Source of the DNA: Deinococcales bacterium
GTDB taxonomy: Bacteria; Deinococcota; Deinococci; Deinococcales; JAAFIG01
Direction: 5' to 3'
Assembly (NCBI GenBank): GCA_013298595.1
Contig: JAAFIG010000022.1
Location: 7,192 to 71,191, forward strand
DNA: 64,000 nt
In this document: positions 60,286 to 63,054 of the stretch, one piece after another
Layout of the letters: every line of letters starts with the position of its first letter
Numbering within the stretch: the stretch's first letter is position 1
Notes under the pieces: model-generated
Told to the model about the DNA's origin: nothing
Seen by the model: the letters and a program-made list of their open reading frames with translations, nothing else
Database searches by the model: none
Position numbers and translations under genes: made by a program

Positions 60286-60651
60286 TTAAACTTCCTGCCA
60301 TACAACGATTTCCTCGAGTGCAATATGCGTGCGCGGTTGCGGATTGGCTTTTGGGTAGCCCATAAAGTAAAAACCAAGCAATTTATTCGGTGCTGCCCAA
60401 CCAAAATGCTTGGCGAGTTCTGGGTGTGTCCAAACTGCCCCACTTTTCCAGAGCGCTCCTAAACCTTGGGCTTGTGCCATCAGGTGAATGTTCTGGGCTG
60501 CCATGCTGACGGCTGCGAGTTCTTCCCACTCGGGCATGGGTTTTTCTTGGCGCGGGGTAAATCCAATGGCAATCCAAACGGGTGCATTGAGAATCAGGTT
60601 TCGGATGGCTTCAAGACTTTTTTCGGTTGGGTTTTGATGAATCAAAGGCAC
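60286..60651 (-). CDS. Nitroreductase-family protein, apparently N-terminally truncated (possible gene remnant)
   Basis: The 121 aa match only the C-terminal two-thirds of the fold (APVWIAIGF...AAQNIHLMAQAQGLGALW...FYFMGYP). The N-terminal FMN-binding RRS.R segment is absent, and only 64 nt separate this gene from the methyltransferase gene. Confidence 0.55.
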   Translation of the reverse strand: MPLIHQNPTEKSLEAIRNLILNAPVWIAIGFTPRQEKPMPEWEELAAVSMAAQNIHLMAQAQGLGALWKSGAVWTHPELAKHFGWAAPNKLLGFYFMGYPKANPQPRTHIALEEIVVWQEV

Positions 60652-60715
60652 AACGTTGGCAAAAACCTATTTGGCTTTCCAATGCTTTATGAAGTAATAA
60701 TGGTAACATTCTGTT

Positions 60716-61846
60716 ATGCCCGAAGTTGTATTGCCTTTATTCCCAGATTTTCAGCTTTCAAATGCCACGCATTTCCGATTTGCTGATATTTTCGCTGGCA
60801 TTGGCGGAATGCGCTTGGGTTTTGAAGCGACTGGTGGGCAATGCGTTTTTTCATCAGAATGGGATGTATATTCCCAAAAAACCTATTTTGCCAATCATAG
60901 TGATTACCCCAAAGGCGACATCACCCAAATTCCCTCGAGTGAAATCCCAGATTTTGATGTGTTACTGGCAGGTTTTCCATGCCAACCATTTAGCAGCATT
61001 GGTTTACGCCAAGGCTTTTTACACCAAACCCAAGGCACATTGTTTTACGAAATTGCCCGTATTCTCAAAGATAAAAAACCACTTGCATTCTTGCTCGAGA
61101 ATGTCAAAGGTTTACTCAGCCACAATAACGGCGAAACCATGCAAATTATTCTCGAGACACTCAGCGAATTGGGTTACACCGTGCAACACCAAGTGCTGGA
61201 TGCCTCGGAATTTGGCGTACCCCAAAAACGCGAACGCATTTACATTGTCGGCTATAGAACAACAGCTTTCCTCGAGAAACCACAATTTAGCTTTCCCAAA
61301 GCCACAAAAACCGATGTCTACATTGGGCAATTTATTGAATCCAATGTGACAGGTTACGAAATTTCCGAGCATTTACAAAAAACCTATATCTTCAAAAAAG
61401 ACGATGGCAAACCCGCCATTGTTTCACCAGACTCGAGCATCCAAATCAAAACCCAAGTGGCTTCGTATCATAAAATTCAACGCTTAACTGGCACTTTTGT
61501 ACGCGATAGCAAAACAGGTTTACGATTACTAACCGAAAACGAATGCAAAGCCATCATGGGATTCCCAAAGCATTTTGTATTCCCAGTCTCGAGAACCCAA
61601 ATGTACCGACAGATTGGGAATTCGGTAGCTGTACCCGTGATTATAGAAATTGCTCAAGCTACGCGAAAACAGATTATTGGAAAAAACGTGAACAAAAAAT
61701 TATTGATAGAAAGGGCAAACACGAGGTTTGCCCCTACGAAAACACAATCCAAAAAAGAATTTTTACATGTAGGGGCGATGCTTGTCATCGCCCTGCTTTT
61801 ACATCCAATGCAATGGTCTACCCTTGCCCACGCGGTACTCGCATGA
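60716..61846 (+). CDS. DNA (cytosine-5)-methyltransferase, with no adjacent restriction gene
   Basis: Motif I is FADIFAGIGGMRLGFE, motif IV GFPCQPFS, motif VI FLLENVKGL, motif VIII PQKRERIYIVG and motif X RQIGNSVAVPV. The last ~45 codons read through two REP hairpins. Confidence 0.9.
   Translation: MPEVVLPLFPDFQLSNATHFRFADIFAGIGGMRLGFEATGGQCVFSSEWDVYSQKTYFANHSDYPKGDITQIPSSEIPDFDVLLAGFPCQPFSSIGLRQGFLHQTQGTLFYEIARILKDKKPLAFLLENVKGLLSHNNGETMQIILETLSELGYTVQHQVLDASEFGVPQKRERIYIVGYRTTAFLEKPQFSFPKATKTDVYIGQFIESNVTGYEISEHLQKTYIFKKDDGKPAIVSPDSSIQIKTQVASYHKIQRLTGTFVRDSKTGLRLLTENECKAIMGFPKHFVFPVSRTQMYRQIGNSVAVPVIIEIAQATRKQIIGKNVNKKLLIERANTRFAPTKTQSKKEFLHVGAMLVIALLLHPMQWSTLAHAVLA
61713..61793. repeat. 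Convergent pair of REP-like hairpins inside the 3' end of the methyltransferase ORF
   Basis: Position 61713..61737 is gggcaaacacgaggtttgcccctac (minus orientation). Position 61769..61793 is gtaggggcgatgcttgtcatcgccc (plus orientation). The architecture matches 4448..4515. Confidence 0.8.
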
Positions 61847-63054
61847 ATCCGATTCTTTCTAAACCCCAAACCCTCGAGTTATTCGCTGCGCCGGGTTGTC
61901 TCGAGGAAGCTTCGCTCGAAGTTGAAGCCATTGTTGCCAATCCGTGGAAGCCTTTAAAATTTGCCCCGCGTGTTGAATTACAAAAAGGTTTTGTGCGGGT
62001 GAAAAATGCCTCATGGGATTTTGCTTGTGAGCTGGCGGCGAGGTGCAGCACGTTGCACGATGTGCGCTTGATGTTTCCTGCGGCTCGAGTACATGGTTGG
62101 AATGATTTACCTCGGGTTTTGCAGCGCTTACCGTGGGGGGTGTTGCTGCCCGAATTTGAACCGCTCGAGTTTCGTTGTGAGGCGTTTGCAGGTGTGATGC
62201 CACACGCGGCTCGAATGACTAAAATTGCCGAGGAATTATTTGTTGAAAATGGTTTTGTGCTGTCTGCCGATGAACCGCATACCAAAATTTATCTAACCTC
62301 GAGTGGCGATTACTTACGAGTCGCGGTGAGTCTTGGCAACGATGCTTTGCATAAACGCGGTTGGCGTGCCAGCACTGGCACGCTGGCAACGCTGCGTGAA
62401 GATATTGCTAGTGCGGCATTGCAACGCTTAGCCGCGTTTGAACCTCGAGTCCGTGAAACAACGCAAATTGCTGTGCCTTTCGCAGGCAGTGGCACTTTGG
62501 GTATCGAAGCGTGGCATAGTTTATTTGGATTACCACCAAGTATTTGGGCAGCTGAACGCCCGTGGCATCGTCTGAGCATGCCGAGCGCTGCAACCCTCGA
62601 GTGGTGGCAGAAACGCAGTCGTAAAGCTGCCGATGCTACTAACTTGCCCGAAATTGTTTTTCTGGAAAATAATGCCGAGCAAATTAAAGAACTCGAGCGC
62701 AACACAAAAAAAGTTCGGAGTATCCTCGAGTCGGCTCAGATTTCGGTGATTCATGCCGATGCGTTTAGTACCAATTTTCTGGCTCGAGATGGCATTGTTT
62801 TGCTGCCATTACACCCGCCGTATGGGTTGCGTTTAGATACCCAAGAAGAAAACCCCGAAACCTTATTTGCTCGGCTTGGAAAAAGTGTTCAAGCATGGCA
62901 ACTCGAGTCAAACATCATTGGTTTTTGTTTGTGCCCTAGCGAAGCAGCATGGCGAGCATTCAAGAATACTCTCGAGGGAATGCGGGTACAAACCACGCAT
63001 TTAACCCAAGGTGGATTGGATATTCGCTTGTGCTGTTTTACAAACTTAGTCTAA
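61843..63054 (+). CDS. THUMP-domain class I SAM-dependent RNA methyltransferase (UPF0020/RlmL-like)
   Basis: Motifs are LHKRGWRASTGTLATLREDIASAAL, motif I VPFAGSGTLGIEA, and motif IV LHPPYGLR. The ATG overlaps the upstream TGA (ATGA at 61843..61846). Confidence 0.75.
   Translation: MNPILSKPQTLELFAAPGCLEEASLEVEAIVANPWKPLKFAPRVELQKGFVRVKNASWDFACELAARCSTLHDVRLMFPAARVHGWNDLPRVLQRLPWGVLLPEFEPLEFRCEAFAGVMPHAARMTKIAEELFVENGFVLSADEPHTKIYLTSSGDYLRVAVSLGNDALHKRGWRASTGTLATLREDIASAALQRLAAFEPRVRETTQIAVPFAGSGTLGIEAWHSLFGLPPSIWAAERPWHRLSMPSAATLEWWQKRSRKAADATNLPEIVFLENNAEQIKELERNTKKVRSILESAQISVIHADAFSTNFLARDGIVLLPLHPPYGLRLDTQEENPETLFARLGKSVQAWQLESNIIGFCLCPSEAAWRAFKNTLEGMRVQTTHLTQGGLDIRLCCFTNLV

Follow-up and report, generated by a model that had tools for sequence, protein, structure and literature searches.

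A predicted solitary CCGG methyltransferase of the M.MspI group in an uncultured Deinococcales bacterium, and a proposed turnover of nuclease genes at its locus

A gene for a C5 cytosine DNA methyltransferase is located at positions 60716-61846 of a 64,000-nt stretch of DNA (the window) from contig JAAFIG010000022.1 of a Deinococcales bacterium (assembly GCA_013298595.1). With a probability of roughly 0.8, its product is a functional, solitary type II C5 methyltransferase of the M.MspI group, with about 1,000 genomic CCGG sites at its disposal and no relation to the CTCGAG palindrome that is so abundant in the same DNA. On sequence grounds there is nothing unusual about it as a solitary CCGG methylase; the apparent turnover of nucleases at its locus is of modest interest. 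Presumably it is active in vivo and methylates CCGG; any present role could lie in protection against CCGG nucleases or in regulation. It has no known regulatory role.

The genome that contains the window (G000) is a metagenome-assembled genome (MAG) of 4.58 Mb in 68 contigs, 94% complete, from an uncultured family of the Deinococcales. The set used for comparison within that family comprised 19 genomes in five genera (g1-g5), in which a 5-methylcytosine (m5C) methylase was scored as present at E <= 1e-20. A wider scan for homologues, restricted to one genome per species, yielded 71 loci encoding relatives of the methylase. The gene and the parts of it that bear on its assignment are as follows.

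60716-61846, plus strand: open reading frame (ORF) for a C5 cytosine DNA methyltransferase, 376 aa (PF00145, TIGR00675)
60716-61660, plus strand: M.MspI-type methylase core, residues 1-315 (PF00145, identity to P11408, dN/dS)
61286-61540, plus strand: target-recognition domain, residues 191-275 (alignment to M.MspI)

The original prediction, made from the sequence alone, had listed a full set of canonical m5C methyltransferase motifs, and all of them can be read in the translation: I (FAGIGG), IV (GFPCQPFS), VI (LENVKG), VIII (QKRERIY) and X (GNSVAVPV). They occur in the canonical order, with the variable region between VIII and IX, as is characteristic of Dcm-type enzymes. PF00145 matches residues 20-315 with an E value of 5.7e-95, over model positions 1-321 of 324, and TIGR00675 (dcm) matches with an E value of 1.3e-96 and 324 bits, against a cutoff of 100.65.

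The evidence for the specificity of the enzyme is derived from comparison with M.MspI, the entry for which (cluster member P0241, UniProt P11408) was retrieved by a protein-database probe; the database sequence was used throughout. The two proteins are 58% identical over 299 residues (E value 1e-132). In the recognition domain, identity is 60% over 85 ungapped positions. As a control, the methylase of locus L067, which has a different recognition domain, was compared in the same region; there, identity was 25% with an indel, even though the catalytic domain is equally similar (52-53%). Across 66 of the 71 loci, which represent many phyla, the variable region 191-275 aligns without gaps at 54-68% identity, and it is conserved as much as the catalytic domain. 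Two outlier loci, with only 23-28% identity in the variable region, served as controls. M.MspI methylates the first cytosine of CCGG and has less than 1% activity at near-cognate sites (PMC11879396). These results indicate that the window methylase most likely belongs to the M.MspI group, with CCGG, modified at the outer cytosine, as its predicted target. The best relative of solved structure is M.HhaI, and the alignment of the window enzyme with it is confined to catalytic segments (residues 17-205 and 256-313). Since the recognition domain fails to align, GCGC, the target of M.HhaI, was rejected.

Partner genes were found at many of the relative loci. At 20 of them the partner is an MspI-like nuclease (PF09208, E value 1e-55; PDB 1sa3, E value 5e-22), at 17 an HNH nuclease of about 200 aa, and at seven an ORF of similar size (about 200 aa) whose BsaWI-like match is weak and falls below the Pfam cutoff. 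A Vsr gene is present at six. The names of the 120 closest homologues gave no specificity.

A group of relatives in Crocosphaera and Cyanothece (loci L010, L013, L015, L018, L020, L021, L026, L062 and L071) was also observed. These are M.MspI-type methylases whose catalytic domains are 56-59% identical, and whose recognition domains are 62-67% identical, to those of the window enzyme. Their genes have a conserved setting between desaturase-like and EF-G-like genes, and clustering of the neighbours showed no adjacent nuclease. Those cyanobacteria may share a solitary CCGG methylase that has been conserved among them.

Site avoidance was determined in about 1 Mb of DNA from 34 genomes in which the homologue is accompanied by a nuclease gene. 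Depletion of a word was never consistent across the three nuclease groups, and GCATGC, GGATCC, GGTACC and others were low overall. The aggregate observed/expected ratio (O/E) for CCGG was 0.82 in the MspI-like group, 0.29 in the HNH group and 0.94 in the BsaWI-like group, with several loci undepleted. TGCGCA was rejected as a target, as it occurs in hundreds to 1,452 copies in whole genomes of the MspI-like group. The most consistently depleted palindrome of this sample (loci L072-L111 and others) was GCATGC, with 49 copies observed and 195 expected; it was low in 19 of 24 genomes. That depletion may represent general palindrome avoidance, separate from the methylase system.

The solitary state of the methylase is apparent from its surroundings. 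Its neighbours are an ABC ATPase, an FecCD permease, a nitroreductase fragment, an RNA methylase, an 81-aa ORF and an LTD-like ORF, which bears out the earlier statement that no restriction endonuclease gene adjoins it. A tblastn search of the 4.58-Mb assembly, in which Vsr and members of all three families of partner nucleases served as queries, gave nothing beyond a generic HNH match with an E value of 6e-4. The window methylase is also the only Dcm-type match in G000 at the threshold given above.

To assess selection, ratios of nonsynonymous to synonymous substitution rates (dN/dS) were calculated for the methylase core in 15 genome pairs. The range over all 15 was 0.057-0.082, and it covers three pairs in which neither genome has a nuclease (G000/G124, G000/G039 and G124/G039). 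The dS values are comparable to those of the neighbouring RNA methylase gene, and, taken with the low ratios, this argues that the methylase has been inherited vertically and kept functional.

It is improbable, given these data, that the methylase is one half of a working restriction-modification (R-M) system whose nuclease lies elsewhere, falls in the unassembled 6% of the genome or belongs to a family that was not recognized. Such a system would be in keeping with a low genomic CCGG content (O/E 0.15 in G000), with the strong purifying selection and with an assembly that is 94% complete and in 68 contigs. However, the tblastn search returned only the generic HNH match, the nuclease lies directly beside the methylase at the other loci examined, and the nuclease-free arrangement described below, in which a repeat doublet occupies the place of a nuclease gene, is common to three sister genomes. 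CCGG is, moreover, equally depleted in genus g4, which has no orthologue (O/E 0.14); genus g1, which has one, shows 0.29. For that reason the depletion cannot be credited to the methylase, and it was rejected as a footprint of the enzyme.

CCGG is not the only palindrome to be scarce in G000. GGCC is almost absent, with 165 copies in 4.58 Mb (O/E 0.012), and about a dozen hexamer palindromes have O/E values below 0.1, among them GGGCCC (0 copies), CCGCGG, GGCGCC, GAGCTC, GACGTC, TTCGAA, TCGCGA, TGCGCA, CTTAAG, CGCGCG and ATGCAT. Yet the genome has one Dcm-type methylase only.

The methylase ORF does not end where those of its relatives do, but runs through a pair of repetitive extragenic palindromic (REP) elements into the start of the next gene.

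61661-61846, plus strand: non-conserved C-terminal extension of the methylase, running through the REP doublet to the TGA of the ATGA overlap
61712-61737, minus strand: REP copy 1, GTAGGGGCAAACCTCGTGTTTGCCC on the minus strand, arms 61713-61720 and 61726-61733 (C15:68928, minus strand)
61769-61794, plus strand: REP copy 2, GTAGGGGCGATGCTTGTCATCGCCC, arms 61773-61780 and 61786-61793, terminator-like because of the GCTTTTACAT that follows it
61843-63054, plus strand: RlmL/COG0116-like class I S-adenosylmethionine (SAM)-dependent RNA methyltransferase, 403 aa (PF01170, RlmKL, Trm14, PDB)

Both hairpins have 8-bp stems that are 100% complementary. What had been described as a convergent pair of REP-like hairpins is accordingly present as regards the hairpins, but its orientation is corrected to that of an inverted doublet, the 5' GTAG ends of the two copies facing each other at a distance of 31 nt. 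The doublet folds with an energy of -41.3 kcal/mol (z = -2.8). It belongs to a family of the form GTAG-GGGC-stem-loop-stem-GCCC. Of the 139 GTAGGGGC sites in the genome, 106 are followed by a hairpin whose stem measures 6 bp or more, and close pairs are inverted in 20 of 24 cases. Copies lie deep inside long open frames in 19% of cases, compared with 64% of random positions, a 3.4-fold depletion. Dispersal, a palindromic structure, a mostly extragenic location and pairing in inverted orientation, the hallmarks of REP/REPIN elements, were thus all found. There are several subfamilies (GCGAGG, GCGGGG, GCGAAC, GCGACC and GCGATG), and examples of sites are C1:6350/6377, C2:125749/125894 and C23:201729-202021. 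A partner REP-associated tyrosine transposase (RAYT) was not identified for the family; the single Y1 transposase of G000 (PF01797, C14:17224-17583, E value 4.8e-41) is flanked by a different hairpin, GCACTAAAGTGCAT.

Relatives of the methylase are typically 305-345 aa in length, compared with 376 aa here, and M.MspI ends 23 residues past motif X. The last 45-60 residues therefore represent a read-through extension and not a domain, in agreement with the earlier suggestion that the last 45 or so are repeat-encoded. In this part, identity to the relatives is 0-46%; in the core it is 85-88%. No stop codon precedes the doublet, so that the frame runs on for approximately 50-60 codons to a TGA that overlaps the next ATG. 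That ATGA overlap, which was also part of the original prediction, is seen at 61843-61846. The frame of the downstream gene is open across the tail as well (ORF 61543-63054), and for this reason selection for translational coupling was rejected as the explanation of the open frame through the doublet. The overlap is best seen as a by-product of read-through.

A methylase gene with such a tail might be decaying into a pseudogene, in that loss of the stop codon and addition of REP-encoded residues would leave the protein unstable or inactive. This would fit a tail of 50-60 non-homologous residues that comes from a strongly folding element, and the lack of a partner nuclease that would select for activity. 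It is nevertheless very unlikely: the catalytic motifs are all intact, dN/dS between the REP-tailed genomes is 0.06-0.08 (0.063 for G124 vs G039, at a dS of 0.33), and extended forms are present in four genomes.

There are, of course, several points that weigh against the interpretation of the gene as a functional solitary CCGG methylase. The CCGG specificity is predicted from homology, and the N-terminal helix-turn-helix (HTH) domain of M.MspI (about 100 residues, PF12844) is missing from the window enzyme. CCGG is depleted inconsistently where the homologue has a nuclease, with per-locus counts that include 24/27, 27/24 and 37/15, and the O/E values of g4 and g1 run contrary to an effect of the methylase. 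The REP-encoded tail of 50-60 residues could impair folding or stability. A partner nuclease may be situated in the missing 6% of the MAG or belong to an unrecognized family. Finally, the junction between the methylase and the nitroreductase fragment upstream of it could in principle be an assembly chimera.

The window contains 402 copies of CTCGAG where 6 would be expected, and the whole of G000 contains 27,211. The excess, at 4.3-6.8 copies per kb, is found in all 19 family genomes and is not seen in other families of the order. The original prediction had put forward the orphan m5C enzyme as the obvious candidate for the cognate modifier of this palindrome, or of its TCGA core, in parallel with M.Ssp6803I and HIP1, and had suggested a comparison of recognition domains as a check. 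That comparison gave 60% identity to the domain of an enzyme that recognizes CCGG, which contradicts a CTCGAG or TCGA specificity; CCGG, the predicted target, is unrelated to either sequence. The distribution of the gene points the same way. Orthologues of the methylase (73-82% identity) are present in only seven of the 19 genomes with the excess, all of them in genus g1, and are absent from the other four genera. Four genomes (G054, G069, G074 and G079) have the full excess, yet no m5C methylase match at E <= 1e-20. With a CCGG-type recognition domain and so patchy a distribution, the link to CTCGAG is refuted on the terms that the original prediction itself had set, and the window methylase is unconnected with the excess.

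Some observations had made that link attractive. The enzyme is the sole Dcm-type methyltransferase in a genome with tens of thousands of CTCGAG sites, it is solitary and under purifying selection, and at the loci with MspI-like nucleases CTCGAG occurs 14 times against 40 expected, although that sample is small and many other palindromes are equally low. Given that homology to M.MspI extends throughout the recognition domain, that the orthologue is missing from most of the genomes concerned, and that homologues with nucleases occur in many phyla without a CTCGAG excess, a role as CTCGAG modifier is scarcely tenable. The methylase core contains six CTCGAG sites, which is the normal density.

Other candidates for the CTCGAG methylase were considered and rejected. 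PF02384 enzymes have numerous matches, but these are patchy across the family. A gamma-class N6-methyladenine (m6A) enzyme of G000 (C11:23236-24732; 499 aa, NPPY, Eco57I and N6_Mtase domains) is present in two of the 19 genomes, its single family orthologue being 43% identical. No family-wide CTCGAG methylase emerged from this limited search. In the search for the writer or reader of the CTCGAG excess, a tempting candidate can thus be struck off as the wrong one, as neither the window enzyme nor any close Dcm-type enzyme is common to all of the genomes that have the excess.

The gene that follows the methylase was also characterized. The product of 61843-63054 matches PF01170 (UPF0020; E value 3.9e-9), the NCBIfam RlmKL model (4.4e-18) and Trm14 (8.4e-8), as well as the PDB entries 3ldu and 3v8v. 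It had been called a THUMP/UPF0020 RNA methylase; the UPF0020 part of that description holds, whereas a THUMP domain as such was not detected by Pfam. The gene is present in 18 of the 19 family genomes; in those outside g1, as well as in G064, different genes lie upstream of it. It follows that the DNA methylase is a lineage-specific addition. The proposed sequence of events begins with the addition of the methylase gene upstream of the family-wide RlmL-like gene within a single genus, after which it would have been vertically inherited under strong purifying selection. In each of the seven genomes with the DNA methylase, the two genes are neighbours. The earlier expression 'coupled to an RNA methylase' is correct as to adjacency but overstates the relationship, as the RNA methylase occurs family-wide and in two sister species a nuclease gene separates it from the DNA methylase.

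The space between the two methylase genes is in fact a variable slot. An orthologous REP doublet occupies it in four genomes (G000, G124, G039 and G109); G049 has an intact HNH nuclease gene there, and G089 an intact gene for a putative, weakly BsaWI-like nuclease. In G044 it consists of approximately 470-640 nt without a recognisable gene (L005:2780-3245), in which a 115-aa ORF has no Pfam match. The nuclease genes are located as follows.

L116:2528-3127 (G049) and L117:2402-3019 (G089): slot nuclease genes
L011:1599-2225: nuclease gene at a third Deinococcales locus

The 31-nt spacer of the window's doublet is unique within G000, but it resembles the spacers of G124 and G039, and the flanks are the same. 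These similarities argue that the doublets were inherited and did not result from independent insertions. A tree built from the RNA methylase places G089 inside the clade of REP-bearing genomes (support 100/100) and G049 as the sister of that clade (98/96), with G000 outside. By parsimony, this topology makes the doublet ancestral and the two nucleases later gains.

The composition of the nuclease genes was determined as well. In those of G049, G089 and L011, CTCGAG is absent over about 600 nt (P of about 0.025 each) and the GC content is 0.34-0.40. The methylase genes beside them have five to six CTCGAG sites, and the normal density in neighbouring genes is about one per 160 nt. No near-identical donors of the two slot genes were found, their best relatives in the sampled loci being only 50-60% identical, a result that is silent on timing.

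On balance, we lean towards the view that a resident solitary CCGG methylase served as a landing pad, and that naked nuclease genes were captured into the slot at its 3' end, replacing the REP doublet, twice and independently. An already-protected genome would then tolerate unrelated nucleases (an HNH enzyme and a putative PD-(D/E)XK enzyme of BsaWI-like type), an orphan methylase would have been re-armed twice, in two sister species, and CTCGAG content would serve as an internal clock of gene residence. A possible but less likely alternative is that the ancestor had a complete R-M system, that each nuclease-free genome lost its nuclease and that G049 and G089 still have nucleases left over from that ancestor. 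Loss of the restriction gene is the usual route to solitary methylases, and outside the genus 44 of the 71 loci do have an adjacent nuclease. The orthology of the G000 doublet with those of G124, G039 and G109 argues against independent losses, as do the nested position of G089, with parsimony placing the doublet at the internal nodes, the unrelated folds of the two nucleases, and the contrast between three CTCGAG-free, low-GC nuclease genes of the Deinococcales and the five to six sites in the adjacent methylase genes.

Under either account, the locus represents a clean natural series, in which a conserved methylase and a fixed downstream gene enclose a REP doublet in some genomes and, in others, one of two nuclease genes that are unrelated to each other. 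It should be useful for the study of the loss of restriction genes from resident methylases and perhaps of their gain. CTCGAG content may mark the residence time of genes in these genomes, recent arrivals standing out by their lack of the palindrome; it would be a handy marker of horizontal acquisition.

Upstream of the methylase, the arrangement in G000 differs from that of its relatives.

60286-60651, minus strand: truncated nitroreductase ORF, 121 aa (partial PF00881 match; full-length orthologues in relatives)
60652-60715: junction spacer, 64 nt, with decayed nitroreductase sequence on the left as far as about 60680 and the methylase leader at the right end

The nitroreductase ORF matches only positions 80-167 of the 167 of the PF00881 model and positions 69-166 of the 183 of PRK10828. 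It lacks approximately 70 N-terminal residues, including the RRS and NHGRTNP segments that are conserved in relatives. Directly upstream of the same FecCD/ABC genes, orthologues of 192-199 aa were found in four sister genomes (G039, G049, G089 and G109), so the truncation proposed earlier, and the synteny check proposed with it, both came out in favour of a shortened gene. The DNA homology to nitroreductase runs approximately 25-30 nt into the spacer and fades at about 60680. At the other end, positions 60699-60715 (AATGGTAACATTCTGTT, about 17 nt) are a methylase leader that is conserved in all six relatives compared, and upstream homology ends there. The gene upstream of the methylase varies among relatives (a CBS-domain gene, a superoxide dismutase gene or another), and the CBS-domain and superoxide dismutase genes of G000 are on other contigs. 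These results support truncation of the nitroreductase at a rearrangement junction, much as the original prediction had read the 64-nt spacer. In G000 only, a rearrangement would have set the block of DNA and RNA methylase genes against the FecCD iron-uptake operon and removed the first 70 or so codons of the nitroreductase.

A candidate promoter was read by eye at 60671-60715 (TTGGCT, 18 nt, TAATAA, ending approximately 15 nt before the methylase ATG); a consensus scan omitted the site. No Shine-Dalgarno sequence precedes the ATG, and translation may therefore start on an mRNA with no leader or only a very short one.

It is of interest, finally, to compare the window locus with known systems. 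The doublet resembles REP/REPIN elements in its short, GC-rich hairpins, in the conservation of a 5' tetranucleotide (GTAG) and in the frequency of inverted pairs, but differs in that it lies inside an ORF because the upstream stop codon is missing. As in the M.Ssp6803I/HIP1 pair (GCGATCGC), a solitary m5C methyltransferase is found in a genome with a hyper-abundant palindrome. There, however, the target CGATCG sits inside HIP1; here, the predicted CCGG is not contained in CTCGAG and is itself depleted (O/E 0.15), and the methylase does not co-occur with the palindrome excess as a partner of the HIP type would.

A close counterpart is M.MspI, the type II m5C enzyme (C*CGG) of Moraxella sp. / Acinetobacter sp. 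NEB149. Every catalytic motif matches the window methylase, the relatives of which are paired with MspI-like nucleases; the window enzyme differs in having no adjacent nuclease and in its REP-encoded C-terminal extension. With the solitary methyltransferases derived from R-M systems it shares the absence of a cognate nuclease, vertical inheritance and purifying selection within the genus. It differs from Dam, CcrM and the cyanobacterial Dmt enzymes in that it is not conserved at the level of the family or above, and from solitary methyltransferases generally in that sister species of the window genome hold nucleases in the very same slot.

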